Shown one piece after another: positions 4,473 to 43,027 of a stretch of DNA of 64,000 bases. The notes beneath the pieces are model-generated. The model worked only from the letters and a program-made list of their open reading frames with translations, did no database searches and was not told the DNA's origin. How positions within the stretch are numbered: the stretch's first letter is position 1; the number at the start of each line of letters is the position of its first letter. A program made the translations under genes and the position numbers. The DNA is taken from positions 384,001 to 448,000 of the forward strand of contig OZ253462.1 in assembly GCA_965261395.1 (NCBI GenBank), in the 5' to 3' direction. This DNA comes from Candidatus Latescibacterota bacterium (GTDB taxonomy: Bacteria; Latescibacterota; UBA2968; UBA8231).

Positions 4473-6758
4473 TCAATACGCTACCCCGACAAGCCCCACC
4501 CGCTTCTCCTCTCCGGTCCCCGCATCCAAAGCGACAGCAAAGATATAGTGGCCCGGCGGCACCGCGTTGTCCCCATCGTCGCGCCCGTCCCAGAAGCGGG
4601 GGAATCGACCGCTCATATCCAAGCCTTCGTAGAGGTTGCGGATCAGCCGGCCACTCAAATCGTAGATCCTGAGCCGCACCCGGGTCGGGTGGGCTATATT
4701 GGTAATATCATAAGTAATGGCCGCCCGCTCGTTGACCCCGTCGCCATTGGGGGTAAAAACGCTGGGGGAGGCCGCCACATTCACTAGTAGTTCGTCGGTG
4801 ATCGGCACGTTGACAAAGAGGTTTTCTGGATCGAGGGTGCCCACGGCTTTGCGGTCGGGATCATCCATGCCCTCCCGGCTCAAATCCGCGGCATTACCGG
4901 CCAACACCACTTGACCCAGCACCTCGTTGTCGGCTGTGAGCGCCCGGCCGGCAAAGCGAGTTCCTAGGCGCAGGACCGTATTTTCAAATTCTAAGGTCAA
5001 GAGTACCCCATTCTCCTCAATCCGCGGAAAGGCCATGACAAAGCCGTCGTCGCGCACTGCCACCACGCTAAAGCCATTCTGCTCGACCGGTAGCGCTGCA
5101 AGGGACAAGCCGGAAAAATCCGCAGTTTCCGCCGTGCCGTCAGGCCGGCGTATTTCCACTCGGCCCATCGACTCCGTGCGCAGCGGTGTGCTGATTTCAA
5201 AGCGGTCAAAGCCCGCATTCTGGGGAGTGGATTTGACCAGTACGCCATACGTGAAGCGGGTGGCTTGGCCTAAGATGGCGGTGCGGGGCAGAATCTCGGC
5301 GATGAGGGAGTCGGCGAAGACGGGCTGGAAAACATCCCAAGCCATCCCGCCGATGCCAGTAGCCGCATCGACATCGGCGTTGAAGAATTCGATCATAACT
5401 TGAAAATAGCGCCGCGGGCTAGGCGATACGATCAGCGTCCCCGATCCCTGCACCTGAAGTTGGTCTGGGACGACAATTCCCTCGGGCGAATAGGGAGGGG
5501 ACCAAGGGCTCCAATTGGTGAGGTCTTCGCGAATCACCGATTTTTGGTCGCTCGCCAACTTGTTGTAGTCCGCCTCGTCGAGGGTGATCTGGGACCGCTG
5601 TTCAAAAGGCAACTGGCCAAAGGTCAAAAGCGCCTCGCGCCCGTCCATCTCTTCGTTGTCGAGGAGGTTGGCGATCAGGCTGTTGAGTTCGCTGTCTTCT
5701 ACATCTTCGGCCTTCTTCCAAGGCGCGTCGATGGGGATGTCAAAAACGGTATCGCCCCGCTGTTCAAGTCGGCCAGAGGATTGCTTGCCGATCCGGGTGA
5801 ACTCGACCGGCTGGGGATCGCCCCCAGTGCGGGTGCGGATCTGCACCCTAGAGCGGGTTGGATCGCCCACCTGCTCTTCAACCCAGCGCAAACGGCCCAA
5901 AAGCGCCCGGTCGCCAAAATCGAATACATTGGAAATGTACACGGCCTGCGGCACAAAGCCCTCGCTGAACACTTGGAACTCGGCGATCTCAAAGTCCGCA
6001 GCCGTCAGAGACTTGAGCCGCAAAAAGCGCACGAAGCGGGTGGGGATTCGCACATCCACCACCGCTTCTTGGTTCTGCCCCTCAAAGGCGACAGTCTCCC
6101 AGATCAGACTGCCCTCGCGGCGCGATTCGGGTTGGCCGTCATTGACGAAAATTTCGTAGCCCTTCAAAAAGTCGTCTTGGGACTGGAAATCGGGAGCTGG
6201 AAAGGCCGGATCGGCGTTGCGCGGAAAAAACTTGAACCGATTGATGCCAAAGATGGCCCCCAAGTCGAATTCGATGAGCAGGCCAAAAGCCCCGGTACCC
6301 CCCGTGCCCGAGGATTGCAGCGCTAAGGCGGTATTTCCGTCGTCGTCGAACATCTGGGGAAAGTCGGCTTCTAGAAAGCGGAAGGAGGGGATGGGCGTGA
6401 TGACGCTGCCACCGCGCTCCTTCGAGTTGACGCCGATCAATATGTTGTCCGTCGTATCGGCCTGCTGCGGGAAGATCCAATGGGCGCGCTCAAAGGGAGC
6501 AAAGTCGATGACGCCGCCGGGCGCGTTGGATTGATCGACAGTCGCCGGGCCGAGGATTACCGTAGCCGGGATCTCCCCGCCACCACTCTCCCAAGACAAC
6601 CCACCCTCGCCCCCCAGTTGGACGACCTCGATTTGGGCACCAACCGGTGCCTGATAACTCAATCCTCCGAGAATAGAGAACAGGAGCAGAGCCCTAAGCG
6701 CGATCCGTCGTCGCCTGTGGTCCTTTTGACCTGCCTGGGATTGTAGCATGGTTGGCAT
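4473..6758 (-). CDS. Secreted protein with discoidin-like jelly-roll region and C-terminal FlgD-Ig/T9SS type B-like domain (subtype A)
   Basis: Signal peptide; FDLG...RFKFFPR...RFVRFLRL...IAEFQVF; C-terminus SPSVFTPNGDGVNE...IYDLSGR...WDGRD...VPPGHY...VGVAY. Start chosen downstream of AGAGGAG (6749 also possible). Confidence 0.85.
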   Translation of the reverse strand: MPTMLQSQAGQKDHRRRRIALRALLLFSILGGLSYQAPVGAQIEVVQLGGEGGLSWESGGGEIPATVILGPATVDQSNAPGGVIDFAPFERAHWIFPQQADTTDNILIGVNSKERGGSVITPIPSFRFLEADFPQMFDDDGNTALALQSSGTGGTGAFGLLIEFDLGAIFGINRFKFFPRNADPAFPAPDFQSQDDFLKGYEIFVNDGQPESRREGSLIWETVAFEGQNQEAVVDVRIPTRFVRFLRLKSLTAADFEIAEFQVFSEGFVPQAVYISNVFDFGDRALLGRLRWVEEQVGDPTRSRVQIRTRTGGDPQPVEFTRIGKQSSGRLEQRGDTVFDIPIDAPWKKAEDVEDSELNSLIANLLDNEEMDGREALLTFGQLPFEQRSQITLDEADYNKLASDQKSVIREDLTNWSPWSPPYSPEGIVVPDQLQVQGSGTLIVSPSPRRYFQVMIEFFNADVDAATGIGGMAWDVFQPVFADSLIAEILPRTAILGQATRFTYGVLVKSTPQNAGFDRFEISTPLRTESMGRVEIRRPDGTAETADFSGLSLAALPVEQNGFSVVAVRDDGFVMAFPRIEENGVLLTLEFENTVLRLGTRFAGRALTADNEVLGQVVLAGNAADLSREGMDDPDRKAVGTLDPENLFVNVPITDELLVNVAASPSVFTPNGDGVNERAAITYDITNIAHPTRVRLRIYDLSGRLIRNLYEGLDMSGRFPRFWDGRDDGDNAVPPGHYIFAVALDAGTGEEKRVGLVGVAY

Positions 6759-6847
6759 ATCTTCTAACTCGACTCCTCTGGGCCAAGGCAAGTAACTGTA
6801 TGAAATACAAAAAGACACAGCAACCAAAATCCGTCAACGCATAGCCG

Positions 6848-8553
6848 CTAGGGTTGGTTGGCTTCAATCCGGGTCTCGCCCATAAACCCACCGGCGATCA
6901 AACGTTCCGCTAGGGCCTTAGCCGCGCTACTCGGCAAGTTTCTATTGGCCCTAATGCCTAGCCGACCACCTACTCTTTCTAGCATTGCCAAGCCCGCCAA
7001 ACTCTGCAATTTCTCGTTAAATTGGACAAATAAATGGCCTTCGATGGTCCTGAGTTCGCCTAATCCAGCCGCGCTGATCAAGGCACCGTTCCGCTCCAAG
7101 AGCAGGTTCCCGCGCACCACTTTGAGGGCCTGCAATCCGCTTAGCGTCTTTAGTGCGTTGTTATTGCGGATAATCAGATCGCCTCCTAGGCGGGATAGGG
7201 CACCCAAGCCCTCGACGCTAGCCAACGCCTCGTTGCCTTCGAGCAGTAGTCCATCCTCCACGATTTTGAGGCGGCGCAAGCCCTGCAAATCGACCAGCAA
7301 CCCATTGCCAACAATCGCCAGTTTACCCCCGACGCTTTCCACCTTGTGCAGCCCCTCCAACGTCGTCAGTGAAGGATTGTTCTCAACCCGCAGAAACTCA
7401 TCTACGATGCCCAAACGGCGCAGCCCAACCAGATCAGTCAGGGCACCATTGCCGAAGATGGATAGGATTCCCCTTATCCGGCTCAGGCGGTGCAGCCCTG
7501 CCAAACTGATCAGCGCTCCATTATCGACGATCAGCAAATCCCCGCCGACGTAGTCTAGACGGCGCAGACCCGCCAAACTTTGCAGCGCGCTATTGCCGAT
7601 GATCAAGAGGAGTCCCTCAATGCGGGCCAAGCCGGCCAAGCCCTCGAGATCGGGCAGAACGCTATTGGCCTGAATCAGCAAATCGCCCCAATGCTCTGGC
7701 ACCCGGCCAAGCCCGCCAAAGATACCAGCGCATCGTTTTTCTCGACTCTCAGACTACCCCCGATCTGGCGCAGGCTACCCAAGCTCGCCAAACGCTCCAA
7801 ACGGGGGTTGCCGATTACCAACACATTCCCAGCGACGCGCGCGAGTTGCTCTAGGCCCGCTAGCTCGACCAAGGCTCTATTTTTCCTAATCCGCAAAAAA
7901 CCGCCCACGTCTTCCAATCGCCGCAGTCCCCCCAAGGCTTGCAACGCCCGATTGCGCTCTATAGCCAACCCGCCCTTTAGGCGTTTGATTCCCTCTAGGC
8001 CGACCAGGCTTTTTAGCGATCCATTGCCGACGACGAGTACCTGCCCCTCTATCGCCTCCAATCGCTCCAGCCCCTCAATGCGGACGAGTTGGCGATTGAA
8101 TTGAATCCTGAGCGACCCGCCCATACGACTAACCCGACGCAACCCCCTCAGACCCACCAAGGCATCGTTGCGCTCGACTATTAAGCTGCCCCCCAATTCC
8201 TCCAGAGACCGCAATCCCTCCAAATCCACGAGTTTGGGGTTGCGCCGGATCCTCAGACTGCCCCCAATCCGCTTTACGTGGTGCAGGCCCGCCAAACTTT
8301 CCAACGAGTCACTATGCTCAATGCTCAGATCGCCTCCTATATACTCGAGTCGCTCCAACCCGTGCAGCGTTTTCAGTTGGTCGCTCTGCACGAGCAAATG
8401 TCCTTCAATAGACCGGGTCGTCAAAGCACCTAGGTCGGCTGCCGAATCAATGACCAATCCTTCTGCTGGTTTGTTCGACTCAGTCGCTTTTATCGGGCCA
8501 ACACTCCAACACAACACCCCAATCAGCGGTGCGAGCAGGGCGCTGTGATTCAT
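6848..8553 (-). pseudogene. Secreted leucine-rich-repeat (receptor L-domain-like, 25-aa period) protein split by a 1-nt frameshift
   Basis: ORFs 7675..8553 and 6848..7702 carry the same LxGLxxLxxIGGxLxIxxNxxLxxL repeat; one extra G in the G4 run (C4 at 7686-7689) restores SIGGDLLIQ and a single 568-aa ORF. Confidence 0.8.
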
Positions 8554-30795: not shown

Positions 30796-30905
30796 CAAAA
30801 TTTATCCTTTAAGTCTGTCCACTGCCGACGCAACCCAATGTGGCTCAGTCAATTAGGACACTGGGGAAATTGGCCTGCCCAACAAAGTGAAGTGAGAAAA
30901 AGCAC

Positions 30906-31664
30906 ATGGACGCGAGTCAGTCAGAGCTTGACTTTGGCATGAGCGAAGGCAGGACGCCATCTGGCCGGAAAAGCCCAGATGGAAACGCCACGACGAACCT
31001 AGTTTTCTCCGCTCATACCGGAAATAACGCGGATGTGTTCCCGGCTGTTTTAAGGCTGCACATCGAGGAAGGCTCCAAAATCGCCGATGTGACATTTGGC
31101 AAGGGCGTCTTCTGGCGCAACGTCGACACTTCAAAGTACGACTTACATCCCTCAGATATCGCGGACGGCACAGACTGTCGCAATCTCCCGTATGAAAGTG
31201 AGTCATTCGATGCGATCGTCCTCGACCCGCCCTATATGGAAGGGTTCTTTCGCAGTGGAAACGCGATCAAAGCAGGCGCGGGGACACATAATGCCTTTCG
31301 AGATCATTATTCCAACGGACATGAGGAACCAAGGCGCGGCGGCGGGAAGTGGCACGCTGCGGTTGTAGAACTTTATGAGGATAGCGGTCGTGAGGCCCAC
31401 CGAGTGCTGCGAGACCGAGGCGCATTGATCGTGAAGTGTCAAGATGAGGTCAGCGCGAACCGCCAGAACTTGACCCACGTTGAGATCATCAACGCCTACG
31501 CCGAGCTTGGATTCTTCTGCAAAGATCTGTTCGTTGTCGTTCGCTCAAACAAACCTGGAATAAGCCGCGTCCTCAAACAGGTCCACGCGAGAAAGAACCA
31601 CTCCTACTTTCTTGTATTTGTAAAAGTCCCCAAGGGAAAGACCGCGGATCAGATGCGCTTCTGA
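30906..31664 (+). CDS. Amino (N6-adenine or N4-cytosine) DNA methyltransferase, compact
   Basis: SAM-binding IADVTFGKG followed by catalytic IVLDPPY. Confidence 0.85.
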
Positions 31665-32242
31665 ATAATCTCATTCATAAGCGTGAAAGGCTCGTCGCTG
31701 AATGGCGGTCTCGGGGGCCAATGGACGGTTACAAGGGTCGCCAAAAGATGCTGGCGCTGATATGGAGTGTACTTCCGATAACTAGACGTCGGAATATCTG
31801 AGTTCTTGGCGAAGACAAACCGCCACTTCTCTTCAAAAGCAAATACGTTGACGGCGAGAATATCGAACTCCCCCTTTAGCAGACACGTTGTCGTCACGCG
31901 GCTATTGTCTGGAAGCACTATCTCCCGGCGATCACTCGCATCGACTTGAGCCTTGCCTATCCATCCTTCTTCGGTCTTCTCGATCATCGCGCTTTGTAGC
32001 GATTTCGATTCAAAGATGAACTCCTGCCCCTTGTACCGGATGACTCGGTCGCCTTTCTTCTTTCTATCGTGGTCATCGTGCTTGATAACCTCTGAAACGT
32101 TGTCACCCGACAGCCAGAGTTTTTCGAGCTTGAGTTCCGCCAAGTAACCCAGAATCATGCCGCGGAGACTCGGATTATCCTCTACTAGCTCCGTTAGCTC
32201 TTCTGGGGTCATATCCCATCTGTCGAGAATCGTTTCGGGCAT
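31649..32242 (-). CDS. Putative type II restriction endonuclease (PD-(D/E)xK)
   Basis: KKGD...FIFESKS motif; convergent with and overlapping the MTase; lower GC than flanks. Confidence 0.7.
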
Positions 32243-32331
32243 ATTATCGCCTTCTTAAGCCTTATATGCAGTAGCTAAATTATGAGCTTACGGAGAATTT
32301 GTGCCCCCAAGGCAACCCAAAATTACATTCC

Positions 32332-34982: not shown

Positions 34983-37148
34983 GTGAGATTGCAAAAAAAA
35001 TGTAGGCGGGTGCTGGCGGCGTGGCTGCTACTGGCGGGGTCAGCACAGGCGGCGACCCTGAGCGGCTTTGTCACCGATGCTGACAACGGCGAAGCCCTGA
35101 GCCGCGCAGCTATCGCGGTGGAGGGGCTTCCGCTCGGGGCGGTCAGCAATCACAGCGGCTACTACGCGGTCAAACAAGTACCGGCTGGTACGCACGTGGT
35201 AAGCGCGTCGCATGCAGGCTACCAGACCCGGTGGGACACGCTGCGCTTTGGCGCGGACGAGGCCGTGCGGCTCAATTTGGCGCTAGTGTCCAAGCCGGCG
35301 GGCCTGGGCGAGCAGGTCTCGGTGGAAGCCGAACGCATCAGCCTCCGCGCCAAGCCGGTGCAGCAGTTGCCCGCCCTTGGCGAGGCCGATCTCTTGCGCA
35401 GCTTACAGCTACTGCCGGGCATCCAAGCGGTCTCGGATATCAGCAGCGGCTTGTACGTGCGCGGCGGCGGCCCCGATCAGGCGGCTATCCTCCTCGACGA
35501 CATTCCGCTGTACAATCCTTCCCACCTCTTCGGCCTCTTCTCGACCTTTAATCCAGACGCCATCAAGGAAGTCAATCTGTACAAGGGAGCCTATCCCGCT
35601 CCGTATGGCCGCACGCTCGGGGCAGTGCTCGACGTGAGCAACCGCGAGGGCAACCGACAGCGAACTAGCGGGCGTGGCGGCGTGAGTCTAATTTCAGGCC
35701 GCCTGCTCACCGAGGGACCAGTCGGCCAAGGCTCGTGGATGCTGGCCGGCCGCCGCACCTACCTAGAACCCGTGCTCAGCGCCATCCGCTCGCGCGGAGT
35801 GGATATCCCCTTGAACTATTACTTCTACGACTTCAACGGCAAAGTCAACCAGCGGTGGGGCGACGACACCTTTACAGTGAGCACGTACTGGGGCCAAGAC
35901 AACCTGCGGCTTGACCTAGAAGACGACGAAGAGTCTTTCGTCAATCTGCGCTGGGGCAACCGCGCCCTGACTGCGCGCTGGACGCGGGTGTTCTCGCCGG
36001 CCCTATTCGGGCACTTCATGGCCACCGGCTCGTCGTACGAAAGCATCATCGCGCTCCGTTTCCTCGACGCGCCCGTCCGCATCGCCAACAGCATCCGCGA
36101 CCTGTCGCTCAAAGGCGACTTGGATTACTTCGCCAACCGCAACCACACCCTTTCTTTAGGCTTGTTGGCCACCCTATTTGAGTTTCACTTTGCCCGATCT
36201 TTCAACGAGCGGACTCAGCTCGACTTGCGCCAAGAGCCGGTGCTGTTGGAAGGCTACGTGCAGGACGAGTGGCGGCTCGGGCCGACCACGCGAGTGCAGC
36301 TAGGCGGACGAGGGACGTACTTCAGCGCAGGGCACCGCTGGCATTTCGCACCCCGGCTGTCCCTGAGCCACGCCCTCAGCGACAAAGTCCGGGTCAAAGC
36401 CGGCGGCGGGGTATATCGCCAACACCTGCAACTGATCACCACCGAAGGCTTTAGCGGCGGCGATTTCTGGGTGCCGCTCGACAGCACCGTCGAGCCGGGG
36501 CGATCCTATCAGGCTGTCACCGGCGTCGAGTGGATCCCTTCGCCGCGCTACCAGCTTTCCGTGGAGGCTTATTACACGGACCTTGCCAACCTAGTGACCG
36601 TGGATACCGAAGTGGATGATGACAACGAGGCCACGCACTCGGACGCGGTATTCAAAAGCGGCGGCACGGGCTGGGCGAAGGGGTTGGAGGTCTTTTTGCA
36701 GCGGCGCACCGGCGCACTCACCGGGTGGATCGGCTACGCGCTCGGTTGGACGCGGCGGACGTTTCCCGAACTCAATGATGGCCGTCCCTTTCCCCCCAAA
36801 CACGACCGCCGCCACGACCTGTCTTTTGTCGCTTCCTACAAGGTGGGCGCATGGCGGCTCGGCGCGAGCTTGGCGTACGCCAGTGGTCAGGCGTTTACAC
36901 CGGTCTCCGAGACCCCTGCCCAGCGCAACAGCGCCCGCCTGCTGCCCTACCACCGCCTCGATGTCAGCGCTAGCCGATCGTTCGGATTGTGGGGAGCCGC
37001 CAGCGAGTTCTACGTGCAGATATTCAATGTGTACAGCCGCCGCAACGAGTGGTTTTTGCAGCTTGATTCAGTCGATCCCGAAGTCGACCCGCGCAAGATC
37101 AAACAATTGCCCATAATTCCCACGCTGGGCTTCAACTTCAATTTTTAG
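34983..37148 (+). CDS. TonB-dependent receptor (carboxypeptidase-regulatory-like N-domain, plug, barrel), paralogue 1
   Basis: LSGFVTDAD, LQLLPGI, VRGGGPDQ, YKGAYPAxYG, terminal Phe (GFNFNF). Confidence 0.92.
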   Translation: MRLQKKCRRVLAAWLLLAGSAQAATLSGFVTDADNGEALSRAAIAVEGLPLGAVSNHSGYYAVKQVPAGTHVVSASHAGYQTRWDTLRFGADEAVRLNLALVSKPAGLGEQVSVEAERISLRAKPVQQLPALGEADLLRSLQLLPGIQAVSDISSGLYVRGGGPDQAAILLDDIPLYNPSHLFGLFSTFNPDAIKEVNLYKGAYPAPYGRTLGAVLDVSNREGNRQRTSGRGGVSLISGRLLTEGPVGQGSWMLAGRRTYLEPVLSAIRSRGVDIPLNYYFYDFNGKVNQRWGDDTFTVSTYWGQDNLRLDLEDDEESFVNLRWGNRALTARWTRVFSPALFGHFMATGSSYESIIALRFLDAPVRIANSIRDLSLKGDLDYFANRNHTLSLGLLATLFEFHFARSFNERTQLDLRQEPVLLEGYVQDEWRLGPTTRVQLGGRGTYFSAGHRWHFAPRLSLSHALSDKVRVKAGGGVYRQHLQLITTEGFSGGDFWVPLDSTVEPGRSYQAVTGVEWIPSPRYQLSVEAYYTDLANLVTVDTEVDDDNEATHSDAVFKSGGTGWAKGLEVFLQRRTGALTGWIGYALGWTRRTFPELNDGRPFPPKHDRRHDLSFVASYKVGAWRLGASLAYASGQAFTPVSETPAQRNSARLLPYHRLDVSASRSFGLWGAASEFYVQIFNVYSRRNEWFLQLDSVDPEVDPRKIKQLPIIPTLGFNFNF

Positions 37149-37177
37149 CATCGAGATCGGCGTCTATTCGGGCCGTT

Positions 37178-37214
37178 TTGCAAGGGTACAACTCCCTCAA
37201 TATGTTTTTCTACA
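37178..37214. promoter_or_regulatory. Operator-like element upstream of TBDR 2 (copy 2)
   Basis: TTGCAAGGGTACAACTCCCTCAATATGTTTTTCTACA, similar to 34882-34925. Confidence 0.5.
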
Positions 37215-37242
37215 TCCCGATTCCAAGCAGATTTGAGCAATT

Positions 37243-39510
37243 ATGACGAATATTCGCAAGACCGTGCAGCATGGGCGGAGCGGTTTACGAATGTTAGCGG
37301 CAGTGTGGCTGCTAGCGGCGGGCGCGGCACAGGCGGCGACCCTGAGCGGATTTGTGACCGACGCCGACAGCGGCGAATCCCTGCCTCTGGCCTCCATTGT
37401 CCTGACGCAGGTACAGTTGGGCGCGGCGAGCAATAGCAGCGGCTACTACGCCGTCAAAGAGGTACCAGCGGGGACGTACGAGGTGGTGATTTCGTATATA
37501 GGCTACAAAAGCTGGCGCGACACCCTAGCGTTCAGCGACCGAGATGTGCGCTTGGATGTGGCCTTGCAGGTCGAGTCGGTGGACCTAGAGGAAATTGTGA
37601 TCCAAGCCGAGCGCAGCGAAGAGCTGGAGCAGGCCACCCAGAGCAGTTTTATCGCCCTACAGGTCGAGCCGTTGCAGCAAATGCCAGCCATTGGTGAGGC
37701 CGATCTCCTCCGCAGCTTGCAACTGCTGCCGGGCATCCAGTCGGCTTCGGACATTAGCAGCGGCCTGTACGTGCGCGGCGGCGGTCCCGATCAGACGGCT
37801 ATCCTCCTCGACCACATCCCCTTGTACAATCCCTCGCACCTATTCGGCTTCTTCTCGACCTTTAATCCAGACGCCATCAAGGACGTCCAGCTATACAAAG
37901 GGGCCTACCCGGCTGCGTACGGCCGCACGCTCGGGGCGGTGCTCGACGTGAGCAACCGCGAGGGCAACCGACAGCGCTTCAGCAGCCGGGGAGGCATCAG
38001 CCTGATCGCAAGCCGTTTGCTGGCCGAAGGGCCGGTGGGGCAAGGCTCGTGGATGCTGGCCGGCCGCCGCACCTACCTAGAACCCGTGCTCAGCGCCATC
38101 CGCTCTCGCGGGGTGGACATCCCCTTGAACTATTACTTCTACGACTTCAACGGCAAAGTCAACCAGCGCTGGGGCGACGACACCTTTACGGTGAGCACGT
38201 ATTGGGGCCAGGACGATCTGCGGGTGGACATAGAAGATGAGAATGAGTCGTTCGTCGATCTGCGCTGGGGCAACCGCGCGCTGACTGCGCGCTGGACGCG
38301 GGTGTTCTCGCCGACCCTGTTCGGGCACTTCATGGCCGCTGGCTCGTCGTACGAAAGCACCCTCTTATTCAGCTTCTTCGACACGCCTTTTAGCATTGCC
38401 AACAGCATCCGCGATTGGTCGCTCAAGAGCGACTTGGATTACTTTGCCAACCGCAACCACACCCTCACCCTCGGCTTTCTCGCCACCCTGTTCGAGTTCG
38501 ACTATGACGAGTCCTTCAACCAGCAGGACCAGTCCGACTTGTACCAAAGGTCGGTGCTGGCCTCGGCCTACGTGCAGGACGAGTGGCAAGCCGGGCCGAC
38601 CACGCGGCTGCGACTCGGGGGACGGGGCACCTATTTCAGCGTTGCGGATCGCCTGCATTTCACGCCGCGAATGTCCCTGAGCCACGCCCTCAGCGACAAA
38701 ATTCGCGTCAAGGCCGCCGCGGGCATGTACCGCCAGTACTTGCAATTGATCACCACCGAAGCCTTTAGCGGCGGCGATTTCTGGGTGCCGCTGGACAGCA
38801 GCGTCGAGCCGGGGCGCTCTTATCAGGGGGTGATAGGCACCGAGTGGGACCCGTCGCGGCGCTACCAGCTCTCCGTGGAGGCCTACTACACCGACTTGGC
38901 CAATCTGGTGGTGCTAGACAACGCGGTGGCCGTCGATAGCGAAAGCACGCGCTCGGATGACATATTCAAAAGCGGGGGTAGCGGCTGGGCCAGCGGAGTC
39001 GAGGTCTTTTTGCAGCGGCGCACTGGCGCACTTACCGGGTGGGTGGGCTATACCCTGGGCTGGACGCGGCGCACCTTTCCCGAACTGAACGGCGGGCTCA
39101 CCTTTCCCCCCAAGTACGACCGCCGCCACGACCTATCTTTCGTGTTCTCGTACCAGGCGGGGAAATGGCGCTTAGGCTCCAATCTCGTGTACGCCACCGG
39201 ACAGGCCTTCACCCCGGCCTCGGCCCGCTATTCGCTGCGCGAGCCAACCACTGGATCGGTGGAAGACTACGTGCTACCGGCCGAGCGCAACAGCGCCCGC
39301 CTACTGCCCTACCACCGCCTTGATGCCAGCGCCAGCCGCGAGTTTGGGCTGTGGGGCCTCGACGTCGAGTTCTACTTGCAAATTTTCAATCTCTACAGCC
39401 GGCGCAACGAGTGGTTCGTGCAGTTCGACACGAAGAATCCCGAGACCGAGCCGGAAGTGGTCAAGCAATTGCCCATCGTGCCGACGCTGGGCTTCAACTT
39501 TTCGTTTTAA
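37243..39510 (+). CDS. TonB-dependent receptor, paralogue 2
   Basis: Same motifs; highly similar to 34983..37148; terminal GFNFSF. Confidence 0.92.
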   Translation: MTNIRKTVQHGRSGLRMLAAVWLLAAGAAQAATLSGFVTDADSGESLPLASIVLTQVQLGAASNSSGYYAVKEVPAGTYEVVISYIGYKSWRDTLAFSDRDVRLDVALQVESVDLEEIVIQAERSEELEQATQSSFIALQVEPLQQMPAIGEADLLRSLQLLPGIQSASDISSGLYVRGGGPDQTAILLDHIPLYNPSHLFGFFSTFNPDAIKDVQLYKGAYPAAYGRTLGAVLDVSNREGNRQRFSSRGGISLIASRLLAEGPVGQGSWMLAGRRTYLEPVLSAIRSRGVDIPLNYYFYDFNGKVNQRWGDDTFTVSTYWGQDDLRVDIEDENESFVDLRWGNRALTARWTRVFSPTLFGHFMAAGSSYESTLLFSFFDTPFSIANSIRDWSLKSDLDYFANRNHTLTLGFLATLFEFDYDESFNQQDQSDLYQRSVLASAYVQDEWQAGPTTRLRLGGRGTYFSVADRLHFTPRMSLSHALSDKIRVKAAAGMYRQYLQLITTEAFSGGDFWVPLDSSVEPGRSYQGVIGTEWDPSRRYQLSVEAYYTDLANLVVLDNAVAVDSESTRSDDIFKSGGSGWASGVEVFLQRRTGALTGWVGYTLGWTRRTFPELNGGLTFPPKYDRRHDLSFVFSYQAGKWRLGSNLVYATGQAFTPASARYSLREPTTGSVEDYVLPAERNSARLLPYHRLDASASREFGLWGLDVEFYLQIFNLYSRRNEWFVQFDTKNPETEPEVVKQLPIVPTLGFNFSF

Positions 39511-39528
39511 GGAGGAAGTCGTGCGCTA
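39484..39528 (+). repeat. 45-bp direct repeat, left copy (TBDR 3' end + RBS + start of DUF4249 gene)
   Basis: ACGCTGGGCTTCAACTTTTCGTTTTAAGGAGGAAGTCGTGCGCTA; 42/45 identical to 42070-42114. Confidence 0.92.
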
Positions 39529-39588
39529 TTAAGAGTTGGACGGTGAGGCACAGGGAAGGTATGAGACCCGGTTCTATATAGTTTCTAC

Positions 39589-40235
39589 TCACTTGCGTGC
39601 AATACGGCACGACTTCCAGTTCTTCGACCAATGTTCATCGGACTGGACATGGCCCGCCCGAACGCTCTTGCAGACATTGTACCTGAATTCCTCGACCGGA
39701 AATGCTCGTGCCAACCGTATCACCACCCCTTCCCGTTCACCTCCCAATACGGATGGCTCCGTGTGCGCCTTGCTTACGAAGTCCTGAATTTCGTCAACGG
39801 AGCGGAACAAGCCCTCGAACAGAATGGGGGCTACCGGAATGTCGTGTTCTTGGGCATAATCCACCATCGTCCGGAACGACGAAAAGGTACCATCCCCAAA
39901 GCGAAGCGCGAAGGCATAAAAGGTTTCGTTCTCGGCGACGGGTTCATATTCGATGCTGTGTACTCCGTAGATATCTTCACCATAAAGAAACACGTCCGGC
40001 TCCATCACTTTCCAAGCATGGTGTTTCTTGACCATCGCCATCCACTTGCCATTCGAAGGAGCGGAGACACTACGTGCATAAACTTCACCCTGGTGAAGGA
40101 GTGTATTGCCTCCATCGATCTTCTCGGTTACGACAATCGGTAATCCTATGAACCTCATCGGGTCGGCAAGAGCTTCGCCGTCTCGGACAGCCGCTGGCGA
40201 GTCTGGCCAGTAGGAGTTTTTGGATATTTGAGCAT
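39589..40235 (-). CDS. ATP-dependent RNA ligase family protein (Rnl2-like adenylation domain); 1-nt frameshift near 5' end
   Basis: Nucleotidyltransferase motifs TEKIDG, LYGE, FYAF, EGVVIR, KSVR. ATG at 40235 reads MLKYPKTP, then needs +1 nt to continue YWPDSP. Confidence 0.8.
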
Positions 40236-40331
40236 ATGACCTGACGTCGAAAATTGGCACTCGAGATCCGCGTGCGTGTTTCTTCCGTTCGCCGCTATGG
40301 CAACGTTGGTGTCTACGACAAAGGATGTCAT
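40155..40331 (-). pseudogene. 58-aa ORF: PIN-domain-like N-terminus running in frame into the RNA ligase start
   Basis: ATG overlaps ATPase stop (TGATG); MTSFVVDTNVAIAANGRNTHADLECQFSTSGH-MLKYPKTP...; below ORF-track length cutoff. Confidence 0.65.
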
Positions 40332-41689
40332 CACGAGGCTTTGATCCGTCTTTCCAGGGACGCTGTGCTAATCGCAGCAATCTCGCCCATTTCATCTCCA
40401 AAAAATTTATCCGGCCAGTTCTCTATTTCACCCCACATATTCAGACTGAGATCGTCGCATTCGGCTACGCCGTGTTTCGTATGAACGAAGTAGAGCTTCA
40501 AGTCTGACGATGACATTTCTTCTTCGGCTACGCGACGCTGGAAGCGCCTTAATAAGTGCTCACTGTGGCTTTCCACGACAATCTGGACCCGGCGCGTCTT
40601 GGCCACTGCGAGTATCACGTCCGCCAATCCACTTTGAACGGACGGATGCAAATGAATTTCCGGCTGCTCCATCAGAACGATAGAGCCATCCGGCACATAG
40701 TACAGAAGTACCAGAACAGGCAAGATTTGGGAGACGCCGAAGCCTACATCCGTTAGCATCGTCTCCGGGCCTTTGTCTCTTTGAACGCAGGCTTGGTACA
40801 GGTTGGACCTAGGCGCGATTTCTTTAACCTCGAAGGAATCAATCAGGCCTAGTTCTCTCAACCAATGGGCAATCATTTCTTGGAATGGCTTGTAGTGCTT
40901 GCGTGGTGCAAGGTTTCGCATCTCGCCTCGTGCGGTAGCCGCCAGAATGGCATCGATAGTGCGTTCGCCGCGTGGTCCCACATCATCGGGGCTAGATCCC
41001 GCCCACCTATACTCGCGCTGCGGATGCTCTCGGAGAGGGCCAAGATAGAAGATCCTATCCATCAGCGCCTCGTACTGAGCTTCGAATTCACTTAGAAAAT
41101 TGGCGTCTTGAAAGTAGGTACGGGCTTGGTCAGGGAAGAGATGTGTCTTAACCGGGCCGGGCAGAGCCCAACCCCGTCCTCTATTCCGAGTGAACTCGAA
41201 CGGGTGTTCACCGCATGATATAAGATCGAACTCATTGGGTTTGTCTACTTTTGGTTCGATGGCGAAAACGGTGTTGTCAAATTTATATTTCATATGATGC
41301 GCCGATAGATCTGAGCCTTTCAGTCCAACCCGGCATTCCATTTGTAGACTAGTTCCCTCTAAGAGCACCTTATTGCGAGGGCCCTTGGGGTCATAGACTT
41401 TATAAGAATTTGGAAGTGTCCAATCTAGGGTCCAGTTGATGTTCGCTTTCTGGTCGCCTTGATGCACAATGGCTTGGTAGGTTCCCAGATTTACCAGTTC
41501 GTTCGGTCCGCCGAAGTCCAGCACGGTACCCCGGTCTGTCGCATTCTTCGTCTGCTTGAGCAAAAGTAGAAACTGAAGCACACTGCTCTTGCCTGAACTA
41601 TTCGTGCCGAAAAGACCAGTGACCTTCCCTAAGGATATCTGTAACTCGCACCATGCCTTGAAGTTAGTGATATTAAGAAATTCCAACAT
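40331..41689 (-). CDS. ABC-type AAA ATPase (AAA_15/AAA_21) with DUF3696-like C-terminus
   Basis: NFKAW, Walker A GTNSSGKS, signature DVGFGVSQ, Walker B MEQPEIHLHP, ESHSEH, GEIENWPDKFF. Confidence 0.9.
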   Translation of the reverse strand: MLEFLNITNFKAWCELQISLGKVTGLFGTNSSGKSSVLQFLLLLKQTKNATDRGTVLDFGGPNELVNLGTYQAIVHQGDQKANINWTLDWTLPNSYKVYDPKGPRNKVLLEGTSLQMECRVGLKGSDLSAHHMKYKFDNTVFAIEPKVDKPNEFDLISCGEHPFEFTRNRGRGWALPGPVKTHLFPDQARTYFQDANFLSEFEAQYEALMDRIFYLGPLREHPQREYRWAGSSPDDVGPRGERTIDAILAATARGEMRNLAPRKHYKPFQEMIAHWLRELGLIDSFEVKEIAPRSNLYQACVQRDKGPETMLTDVGFGVSQILPVLVLLYYVPDGSIVLMEQPEIHLHPSVQSGLADVILAVAKTRRVQIVVESHSEHLLRRFQRRVAEEEMSSSDLKLYFVHTKHGVAECDDLSLNMWGEIENWPDKFFGDEMGEIAAISTASLERRIKAS

Positions 41690-42069
41690 TGGTTACTTGC
41701 CTTCCTTGGAGTGCGGTCGCCACCTCGACGCTTCTCGTGAGGTCTCGTTCCGAAACCGCGCCGACCGACCATCTCCTTCCGGTGAAATAGCTGGATTCGC
41801 TTGGAGGCAGCCTTAATGGTCTCTTTCATGGCTCCACCATAGTTTTGGTCGCGTGGTGTAAGACAAAGTACAAGGTTCAGCAAACCCTCGCCAGCATCAC
41901 GTCCTCTTGTAGTAGCCTCTCGATACGGACCTGGAGCAGCGATCGTATATATTTGTATATAGTGTTCGATATACTGTACTTTTGCTTTATGCCAAGCAAG
42001 ACTTTGGCCTATCTAGGCAGCCGTTTTCGACTTGGGCCAAACAGTATGAATCCCAAGGTGCGCCTAAAC

Positions 42070-42114
42070 ACGCTGGGTTTCAATTTTTCGTTTTAAGGAG
42101 AAAGTCGTGCGCTA
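42070..42114 (+). repeat. 45-bp direct repeat, right copy
   Basis: ACGCTGGGTTTCAATTTTTCGTTTTAAGGAGAAAGTCGTGCGCTA. Confidence 0.92.
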
Positions 42115-43027
42115 CATTTTTATCGTCCTATGCCTAACGGCCTGCGCTGCCGAGCGCCAGCCGGGCGATCTCTTCGGCTCAGTAAAAAAAGAAAGCGAGG
42201 TGGTGGTGGACGGGGTGCTGCTGGTCGATCAGCTCCTACCCGAATTGTTCGTGCGGCGCACCCTGCCTCTCGACCAAACCTATCGCAGGGAAGCGGCGGT
42301 AGTAACTGACGCCGAGGTGCGCATTTTCCAAGGGGACCAAGTCTTTGATTACGCACCCGACCCGACTACGCCCGGCCGCTATCTGCCACCGCCAGAGGCC
42401 CCCCAAGTGGAAGCCCTGACCGAGTACCGACTGGAAGTGGACGTAGAGGGAAAGAAAGTGCGTGCCAGCACGACCACGCCAGAGCGGCTGCGGCTGCGGC
42501 AGGCGGTGCTGGTTGACGAAGACACCCAAGAAATCGTGCGGACTCTCAAGTCATTTGCCGAGGTTGGGGACGAGGTTTACACGGCACCGGAGAATCAGCT
42601 TACTCACCTAGAGGGCCTGATCGAACTCCACTTGGAAAAGGCAGGGGAGGCGTACCAAGCAGCACTCTTCGCTTTGGAAGAGAACGCGCAATTGCTCGAC
42701 GAGGATTTCCCGGACTTGTTCGACGAGGACTTGGATGCATTGCGAGCCAACCAATCGCCGCCCTTCGCCGCCAGCGACGGAATCGTGCGCTGGCCGTGGT
42801 TCGCCGTGGTTTATACCGGGCGTTCGCTAATAAAGGTGTACGCACTCGACCACAACTGGTTCGAGTACGCCCGCTCCAGCCCCGACCTGCAGGAACAGGG
42901 AGGATCTGCAGGAGGGCTGGCCGGCGAAAATTTCGAGCGGCCATTCTTTCAGGTGGAGGGAGGCATCGGGCTGTTCGGCTCGGCGTCGGTGGATTCGGTG
43001 GGGTTTGTCGTCCTGCCGCGACCGTAG
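42107..43027 (+). CDS. DUF4249-like lipoprotein (TBDR partner)
   Basis: Lipobox LTAC; VVDGVL, DAEVRI, YRLEV, C-terminal VEGGIGLFGS; RBS AAGGAG. Confidence 0.8.
   Translation: MRYIFIVLCLTACAAERQPGDLFGSVKKESEVVVDGVLLVDQLLPELFVRRTLPLDQTYRREAAVVTDAEVRIFQGDQVFDYAPDPTTPGRYLPPPEAPQVEALTEYRLEVDVEGKKVRASTTTPERLRLRQAVLVDEDTQEIVRTLKSFAEVGDEVYTAPENQLTHLEGLIELHLEKAGEAYQAALFALEENAQLLDEDFPDLFDEDLDALRANQSPPFAASDGIVRWPWFAVVYTGRSLIKVYALDHNWFEYARSSPDLQEQGGSAGGLAGENFERPFFQVEGGIGLFGSASVDSVGFVVLPRP

Follow-up and report, generated by a model that had tools for sequence, protein, structure and literature searches.

An insert of about 2.5 kb in a Latescibacterota genome very probably carries a decayed three-gene cassette of the HEC-03 type, in which an ABC ATPase would gate a PIN ribonuclease and an RNA ligase would reseal the cuts, and from which most of the PIN gene has been deleted. 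HEC-03 (Hma-embedded candidate 03) is a tested two-gene anti-phage system consisting of an ATPase and a VapC-like PIN protein (Payne, Hughes, Fineran, Jackson, bioRxiv 10.1101/2024.01.29.577857). The window analyzed here is a stretch of 64,000 nucleotides, and it is compared below with L009, a syntenic Latescibacterota genome that shares the flanking genes and still has the intact trio in the corresponding place. The features of the locus, in window coordinates, are:

39529..42069, minus strand: insert with the decayed three-gene cassette, defined by GC contrast and by blastn against L009
39484..39528, no strand assigned: left copy of a 45-nt repeat (TonB-receptor end, RBS, first 8 nt of DUF4249), taken as the reference copy of the repeat family
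42070..42114, no strand assigned: right copy of the 45-nt repeat, directly before the real DUF4249 gene (42107-43027; DUF4249 match), whose start it overlaps
41690..41895, minus strand: leader or promoter region 5' of the ATPase, conserved with L009, where the blastn match starts at window position 41895
40331..41689, minus strand: intact ABC ATPase (452 aa, DUF3696 tail) that corresponds to the ATPase of HEC-03 (PADLOC and Pfam)
40252..40334, minus strand: PIN gene remnant (HEC-03 PIN component), codons 1-27, with the first-strand VVDTNV Asp retained (PADLOC PDLC04147; L009 PIN)
40236..40251, minus strand: deletion junction, where the remaining spacer replaces about 417 nt of L009 (blastn coordinates, alignment, L009 ORFs)
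39589..40235, minus strand: RNA ligase, in relatives a 215-aa protein made of the nucleotidyltransferase domain alone (start ATG 40235-40233, stop 39589-39591; PF09414)

The ATPase, the PIN stub and the ligase all lie on the minus strand of the insert, where GC content is 0.48-0.54 as against 0.59-0.65 in the flanks. The two copies of the direct repeat that bracket the insert are 93% identical, and each covers the final codons of the TonB-receptor gene, an RBS, and 8 nt from the beginning of the DUF4249 gene. The repeats, the GC contrast and the shared strand bear out the first-pass annotation, which had read the locus as a co-oriented trio in a repeat-bounded, lower-GC insert, and the insert is foreign DNA. 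An inverted repeat is also present at 39514-39530 and 39601-39617. Aligned to L009 by blastn, the window matches at 41895-40252 and 40240-39605 with 91-92% identity. Nucleotide identity to L009 is 91% for the cassette, compared with 90% and 86% for the flanking genes, and values this close fit inheritance of the cassette from an ancestor common to the two genomes. An ORF at 41629-41883, upstream of the ATPase, was considered as a small extra gene and rejected, because it has no family match in Pfam, PADLOC or NCBIfam and its conservation with L009 is limited to about 200 nt. Overall, the NCBIfam search returned sub-threshold matches only.

Over residues 1-451, the ATPase matches the HEC-03 ATPase model in PADLOC (PDLC04148; E 3e-214, profile positions 1-455 of 458), and in Pfam it matches AAA_15, AAA_21 and DUF3696. 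It retains 142 of 143 conserved columns and has a dN/dS of 0.18 against L009. Its stop codon overlaps the start of the PIN stub in the sequence TGATG (40329-40333), the coupling to a hidden ORF that had been proposed from the letters alone. The stub begins MTSFVVDTNVAIAANG, and 32 codons on the same frame enters MLKYPKTP. Its residues 4-31 match the HEC-03 PIN model (PDLC04147) at E 4.7e-10 over profile positions 2-29 of 159, which upholds its earlier description as a PIN-type first strand with the catalytic Asp. Judged by these profile scores, the likeness of ATPase and stub to the HEC-03 models is far beyond chance.

How much of the PIN gene is gone can be read directly from L009, with whose PIN residues 1-29 the stub is 90% identical. 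About 417 nt are missing, in frame: PIN codons 28-163 (136 of 163 codons) together with the stop codon and some of the spacer, while the ligase ATG and the rest of the spacer are retained. Only the first Asp of the active-site acids remains in the window. The stub is the sole match to this PIN in the host genome, where no second PIN copy of the HEC-03 family was found and the ligase is likewise present in one copy. That the copy is disarmed by the loss of most of its PIN gene, as the first-pass annotation had it, is therefore confirmed against a chromosomal site that is intact in L009, and the ATPase in this genome is an intact orphan. With codons 28-163 lost and no other PIN copy in the genome, the cassette should no longer be able to defend; an assay of the window copy for phage protection is predicted to be negative, the effector being missing.

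The intact L009 PIN protein matches the HEC-03 PIN HMM at 1.3e-66. An AF2 model of the stub's intact orthologue has a pLDDT of 93, and a Foldseek search against the PDB with it returned mostly VapC and other PIN-like nucleases as top matches, with probabilities of 0.97-1.00. Across 33 sequences, conservation is complete or at least 90% at the acids D8, E54, D112 and D131/D133. By its predicted structure, the intact orthologue is thus a PIN fold with D-E-D-D acidic residues, and its Pfam score for PF01850 is 21.0 bits (E 5.5e-4), below the gathering threshold of 23.6.

Downstream of the stub, the window ligase ORF scores 65.2 bits with PF09414 (cutoff 27; E 1e-17), and its motif I (KxDGxN) reads EKIDGGN, in agreement with the PF09414-type ligase first assigned here. 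Among 28 ligase sequences, the motif I lysine K39 and 63 other columns are invariant, D41 and G42 included. The fold matches of the ligase model, which is of moderate quality (pLDDT 71), are Rnl3, NgrRnl and T4 Rnl2. These matched chains of 233-381 residues align over the adenylyltransferase domain only, and the ligase has no accessory N- or C-terminal domain; single-sequence and profile searches against PDB chains gave no true match, and none of the PADLOC models matches the ligase. The stub had been described as running in frame into the ligase. This is correct for MLKYPKTP, the first 8 ligase codons, and incorrect beyond them: the stub's frame stops at 40155, and the ligase body, which opens with YWPDSP and ends with the stop codon at 39589, occupies another frame. 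In an alignment with L009 and L017, the window has one C too few in a run of Cs near 40213-40214 (minus strand), which puts the ligase out of frame after codon 8.

Either the ligase carries a true frameshift past codon 8, or the homopolymer was misassembled. It is possible, though we would not favor it, that the shift is an assembly error at the short homopolymer and that the ligase is still made, either starting at its own ATG or fused to the 32-residue stub, and survives as an independent RNA-repair enzyme now that the nuclease is lost. The single missing C is the sole defect, the deletion is in frame and spares the ligase ATG, and the ligase keeps 87 of 89 columns conserved in at least 95% of sequences, with conservative changes at the other two. 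Ligase-only remnants also recur at other loci (L097-L099 and L108). Against this, the shift is present in the sequence as given, and the ligase dN/dS of 0.25 against L009, which would otherwise argue for a functional gene, averages the whole divergence from that genome, such that a recent inactivation would look alike.

To place the ligase in the cassette, we surveyed 80 ATPase-anchored loci. The PIN gene adjoins the ATPase in all 80, with a single HSP of at least 140 residues in 71, and it is followed by an intact ligase in 55 (a full ORF in 54; in L017 the gene extends past the contig end). PIN and ligase are both full ORFs in 52 loci, and the ATPase-PIN-ligase order spans eight phyla, with the ligase start either overlapping the PIN stop or lying no more than tens of bases from it. 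Ligase presence is clustered on the ATPase tree: its distribution takes fewer changes than any of 500 label shuffles. When the scan was anchored on the ligase instead, PIN and ATPase were found upstream in 17 of 35 metagenome loci. The first-pass annotation had tied the ligase to ATPase-PIN pairs and allowed that the two might never co-occur elsewhere, yet they do so in most loci of the survey. On this comparison of loci, the ligase is a genuine third gene of the cassette. The only observation in favor of a chance neighbor, brought next to the ATPase-PIN pair by a deletion and without functional tie, is that the deletion in the window directly fuses stub and ligase; given the intact trio in L009, the recurrence of the order with an intact PIN in so many phyla, the close spacing and the tree clustering, we regard this as highly improbable and reject it.

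No conserved fourth gene, kinase or phosphatase was found beside the 54 trio loci. Among neighboring same-strand ORFs, the largest cluster held 4 of 42 on the downstream side and 9 of 48 on the upstream side, and the upstream one consists of spurious high-GC ORFs from near-identical genomes. Natural pair-only loci with an intact PIN make up 18 of 78 assessable loci, and in these no third-gene substitute was found, the downstream ORFs varying from locus to locus. At L064 the PIN gene is intact and the ligase broken. Because the PIN gene stays intact in these 18 loci and in L064, the ligase is not an obligatory antidote.

We propose that in intact relatives the ABC ATPase would sense infection and would hold or gate the VapC-like PIN nuclease through its DUF3696 tail. 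Once released or activated, the PIN protein may cleave RNA of the translation apparatus. Members of the PIN superfamily target RNA and leave 3'-OH and 5'-phosphate ends, and the same is assumed for the cassette PIN, whose metal-dependent cuts would then leave such ends. The co-transcribed ATP-dependent ligase could seal them without an end-healing enzyme, and it might thereby mend damage from a leaky nuclease and let cells recover. A contrary role for the ligase, in attack or signalling, is unlikely in our judgment. It might, for example, adenylylate cut ends or join them into dead-end products, or modify the PIN target against phage repair. The bare nucleotidyltransferase domain of about 215 aa, without the extra domains of Rnl2, Rnl3 and Rnl5, and the strict conservation of its catalytic motifs are consistent with such a role, and the existence of pair-only forms means that the ligase could be an outcome-changing add-on in place of a safety device. 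Homologues with 30-41% identity in jumbo phages and megaplasmids speak against it, as jumbo-phage ligases of this kind are taken to be RNA-repair counter-defence (PMC7824862). The pattern of decay also points away from attack: the PIN gene is lost and the ligase kept at L020, L097-L099 and L108 (and in the window, if the frameshift is an assembly error), while the ligase is lost or broken and the PIN kept at fewer loci (L058 and L064). Such a pattern is easier to reconcile with a harmless ligase than with a toxic one.

The window genome is an ordinary case, a dead defence cassette that exemplifies decay with the toxic effector disappearing first. More broadly, in most close relatives a nuclease-based anti-phage system of tested activity is accompanied by an RNA ligase of its own, a gene that the PADLOC HEC-03 detection models leave out. 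If the ligase reverses the nuclease cuts, it would be a built-in recovery arm of RNA-targeting immunity, and the trio would offer a simple three-gene model for asking whether such defences must kill the cell. More tentatively, HEC-03-type immunity might be a cut-and-reseal response in about two thirds of the clade, where the host ligase would make PIN cleavage reversible, turn the response into a tunable growth pause and not suicide, and set the threshold of autoimmunity. If so, the repeated independent loss of PIN (in the window and at L020, L034, L043, L044 and L097-L099) would mark the cost of the nuclease when the balance fails.

RNA ligases reverse the cuts of tRNA nucleases, and phage T4 supplies its own Pnk and Rnl1. 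The stand-alone PF09414 ligases of jumbo phages and megaplasmids belong to the same family as the cassette ligase and are about as long, their matches covering 93-99% of the cassette query, although their identity to it is low. The adenylyltransferase domains of Rnl2, Rnl3 and Rnl5 share its fold without a sequence-level PDB match, and the accessory domains of T4 Rnl2, Pab1020 (Rnl3) and NgrRnl (Rnl5) are absent from it. VapBC modules share the VapC-type PIN fold and acidic tetrad with the stub's intact orthologue, which falls short of the Pfam PIN threshold as noted; in contrast to VapBC, there is no VapB-like antitoxin here, and the partners are an ABC ATPase and a ligase. PARIS (AriA/AriB), PrrC and RloC resemble the cassette in combining an ABC-ATPase sensor with an RNA (tRNA) nuclease, and the AriA model matches the window ATPase at 2.9e-28, partially (residues 294-380). 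However, the Toprim (DUF4435) partner AriB has no counterpart in the cassette, and the effectors of these three systems are Toprim or HEPN-like whereas that of the cassette is a PIN protein. The products of PrrC and RloC need end healing and the ligase is phage-borne, while the cassette has a host ligase and no kinase or phosphatase.

The ABC ATPase of Menshen (NsnABC), NsnB, likewise carries a DUF3696 tail, and its model matches the window ATPase at 1.4e-60. In the predicted complex, two NsnB DUF3696 tails grip the PIN-like N-domain of NsnC between them (PMC12065111), and this prediction is the basis of the gating model proposed here for the HEC-03-type cassette. Menshen differs in having NsnA (DUF262/ParB); the cassette lacks NsnA, has three genes and gives no match to the NsnA or NsnC models. 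The PIN domain of NsnC has no catalytic residues and is joined by a separate C-terminal RNase (PMC12065111), in contrast to the cassette PIN, which keeps the D-E-D-D residues, has no extra domain and is predicted to be the effector itself. Menshen is also described without a ligase, the word occurring 0 times in PMC12065111.

The closest known system is HEC-03. The first-pass annotation had proposed an ATPase/PIN defence module and knew of no named system with the trio. The module is supported by the HEC-03 model matches; the claim of novelty fails for the ATPase-PIN pair, which is HEC-03 itself, present in PADLOC-DB, already named and tested against phage. According to the main text of the preprint (bioRxiv 10.1101/2024.01.29.577857), the HEC-03 ATPase and PIN lower plaquing, defence requires both genes, and IPTG-induced strains show apparent toxicity. 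The component names differ between sources: HEC-03A is the ATPase and HEC-03B the PIN protein in the paper, and the PADLOC HMM names are reversed. RNA ligase is mentioned 0 times in that main text, and the literature searched contained no account of an operon that joins ATPase, PIN and RNA ligase. As a two-gene system without a ligase in the preprint, HEC-03 indicates that defence does not need the ligase. As in the window, the ABC ATPase of HEC-03 has a C-terminal tail and stands ahead of a VapC-like PIN gene. The system is described and modeled as two genes, to which the cassette of the window and its relatives adds the ligase. The window copy has the HEC-03 ATPase and lacks the adjacent intact PIN gene, which the L009 copy retains.

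An ABC ATPase, a PIN nuclease and an RNA ligase are encoded by three conserved, co-oriented and closely spaced genes, and the effector gene among them has been deleted in the window. The cassette occupies a 2541-nt insert (39529-42069) with a GC content of 0.48-0.54, compared with 0.59-0.65 in the flanks, and all of its coding content lies on the minus strand:

37243-39510, plus strand: TonB-dependent receptor gene, left neighbour of the insert
39589-40401, minus strand: long ORF with an RNA-ligase domain (PF09414)
40155-40334, minus strand: stub ORF of 59 codons, its start overlapping the ATPase stop (TGATG at 40329-40333)
40331-41689, minus strand: ABC-type ATPase with a DUF3696 tail (452-aa ORF)
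42107-43027, plus strand: DUF4249 gene, right neighbour of the insert

In Pfam searches, the 452-aa ATPase matches AAA_15 (1.9e-25), AAA_21 (1.2e-20) and DUF3696 (9.4e-7). Against PADLOC-DB, the ATPase aligns end to end with PDLC04148 ('HEC-03B'; 3e-214), with Menshen NsnB far behind (1.4e-60), and residues 4-31 of the stub ORF match positions 2-29 of the 159 in PDLC04147 ('HEC-03A') at 4.7e-10. The ligase ORF matches PF09414 at 1e-17 and none of the PADLOC models, and NCBIfam returned nothing above cutoffs for the cassette genes. The window's genome also contains several distant AAA_15/21-type ATPase paralogues (L002-L004 and L008, at G000:C1 3217174-3226344 and 3090811-3094968; 28-38% identity over parts), and two of these lie at most 6 kb apart, which suggests other ABC-ATPase defence loci.

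A Latescibacterota MAG (locus L009) shares the window's neighbouring genes, namely the TonB receptor, the DUF4249 gene and a 782-aa gene, and carries an intact operon between the first two:

5001-6359: ATPase, intact
6356-6847: PIN, 163 aa, intact
6875-7522: ligase, 215 aa, intact
7657-7929, minus strand, opposite to the operon: UPF0150/HicB-like antitoxin-type gene (PF21748, 2e-26)

The last of these, located between ligase and receptor gene, is absent from the window. Window positions 41895-40252 correspond to L009 4796-6438 (91% identity) and 40240-39605 to 6870-7506 (92%), so about 417 nt are missing in frame from the window, comprising PIN codons 28-163, their stop codon and a few bases of spacer. 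The first-pass annotation had the stub running in frame into the ligase start MLKYPKTP. This peptide does share the stub frame, but the frame stops at 40155, and the rest of the ligase, from YWPDSP on, is read in a different one. Alignment with L009 and L017, a further relative, shows a C run on the window's minus strand, at about 40213-40214, to be one C short, which indicates that the window ligase is frameshifted after codon 8, unless this is a homopolymer assembly error. We found no second PIN of the stub's family elsewhere in the window's genome, and its only ligase copy is the cassette's own. The ATPase (dN/dS 0.18 against L009) and the ligase (0.25) still look selected, retaining 142 of 143 and 87 of 89 highly conserved columns, respectively. 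The explanation is either recent decay or continued use of the ligase. The window's copy is a non-functional remnant, and its own interest is thus modest.

The insert is flanked by a 45-nt direct repeat (39484-39528 and 42070-42114; 93% identity between copies) consisting of the receptor gene's final codons, an RBS and the initial 8 nt of the DUF4249 gene. The duplicated receptor-gene tail is longer in L009 (4678-4845 and 7942-10182), with KQLPIVPTLGFNFSF in both copies, which argues that the repeat is an old target duplication or att-like site, now eroding. The insert holds no integrase, in the window or in L009. Divergence from L009 is similar for the cassette (91% nucleotide identity) and for the flanking genes (90% and 86%), which fits an insertion predating the split of the two lineages. 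Its position is the exact 3′ end of the second of two tandem paralogous TonB-dependent receptors (34983-39510; 721 and 755 aa; CarboxypepD_reg and Plug domains). A 17-nt inverted repeat (39514-39530 and 39601-39617; 88% complementary) links the left boundary, with RBS and duplicated gene start, to the ligase's last codons, and could represent a terminator-like hairpin or a relic of the insertion. A second low-GC island at 30850-32300 (GC 0.50-0.53) probably encodes a small type II restriction-modification pair:

30906-31664, plus strand: N6/N4 DNA methylase, 252 aa (PF01555, 6.3e-7)
31649-32242, minus strand: convergent ORF, 197 aa, no Pfam match

Scanning one genome per species, we confirmed 275 relatives of the ATPase and fetched the best 80 (L009-L088; 57-89% identity). 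Using the L009 proteins as tblastn queries, a PIN homologue was found directly after the ATPase in all 80, with a single HSP of at least 140 of 163 residues in 71; the remaining nine are L020, L022 (contig end), L027, L029, L033, L034, L043, L044 and L065. In the otherwise intact trio of L065, about 1.2 kb (6356-7601), possibly a mobile element, is inserted between ATPase and PIN gene. Downstream of the PIN, 54 of these best 80 loci have a full-length ligase ORF (at least 200 aa), or 55 when counting L017, where 215 aligned residues run off the contig end; PIN and ligase are both full ORFs in 52. The ligase is broken or shortened in five (L034, L043, L044, L058 and L064) and missing from 18, while L022 and L031 are too short to judge. 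Downstream genes vary among the 18 pair-only loci, and no further conserved gene was found on either side of the 54 trio loci. On a quick maximum-likelihood ATPase tree, pair-only and trio forms cluster, and no label shuffle out of 500 gave a value as low. Phyla with the trio are Latescibacterota, Binatota, Thermodesulfobacteriota, Spirochaetota, Acidobacteriota, Pseudomonadota, Gemmatimonadota and Rhodothermota.

A second, ligase-anchored scan of metagenome contigs yielded 35 loci, 17 of them with PIN and ATPase upstream. Six match the PIN alone: two of them are truncated by contig ends, and four, L097-L099 and L108, hold true remnants. Another 12 have neither gene; two of these are too short to judge, and of the remaining ten, eight are more distant ligases (51-62% identity). 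Similar decay recurs across different lineages: L034, L043 and L044 from genomes and the four metagenome remnants carry independent deletions, either across the PIN-ligase junction or removing the ATPase and PIN N-terminus and leaving the ligase. Loss of the PIN with survival of the ligase is commoner among decayed loci than the reverse, which suggests that the nuclease is what makes the module costly.

The intact PIN retains acidic residues D8, E54, D112 and D131/D133 in an alignment of 33 sequences. Its Pfam PIN score is just under threshold; its predicted fold (pLDDT 93) best matches mostly VapC toxins and other PIN-like nucleases in the PDB, at probabilities of 0.97-1.00 and E-values of only ~2e-3. 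Among 28 ligase sequences, the motif I lysine and 63 other columns are invariant. The ligase is a bare domain; its model, of moderate confidence (pLDDT 71), resembles Pab1020 (Rnl3), Naegleria Rnl and T4 Rnl2 in their adenylyltransferase domains, but no PDB relative was found at the sequence level.

PIN superfamily members are generally metal-dependent nucleases that leave 3′-OH and 5′-phosphate ends. The ATPase would sense infection and gate the PIN RNase, whose cleavage would produce such ends, and the ATP-dependent ligase could seal them directly. Direct sealing fits the module, in which no kinase or phosphatase was found, and the toxicity of HEC-03 reported by Payne et al. An obligatory antidote role for the ligase is disfavoured by the natural pair-only forms and by L064, where the PIN is intact and the ligase broken. 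Homologues with 30-41% identity to the ligase occur in jumbo phages and megaplasmids, and similar jumbo-phage ligases have been interpreted as RNA-repair counter-defence (PMC7824862).

The ATPase-PIN pair is a clear member of HEC-03, an ABC ATPase with a VapC-like PIN protein that reduces plaquing of at least two phages, requires both genes for defence and causes apparent toxicity with IPTG in expressing strains (Payne et al., bioRxiv 10.1101/2024.01.29.577857). The paper names the ATPase HEC-03A and the PIN HEC-03B, whereas the PADLOC HMM names are reversed. Literature searches found no published description of an ATPase-PIN-RNA ligase trio, and 'RNA ligase' does not occur in the main text of the HEC-03 preprint. 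The candidate new module of the first-pass annotation is a three-gene HEC-03 variant, absent from the PADLOC model and that main text. In Menshen, an NsnB dimer is predicted to clamp the PIN-like domain of NsnC with its DUF3696 tails (PMC12065111), and this clamp offers, by analogy, the best available model for how the ATPase may hold its PIN.
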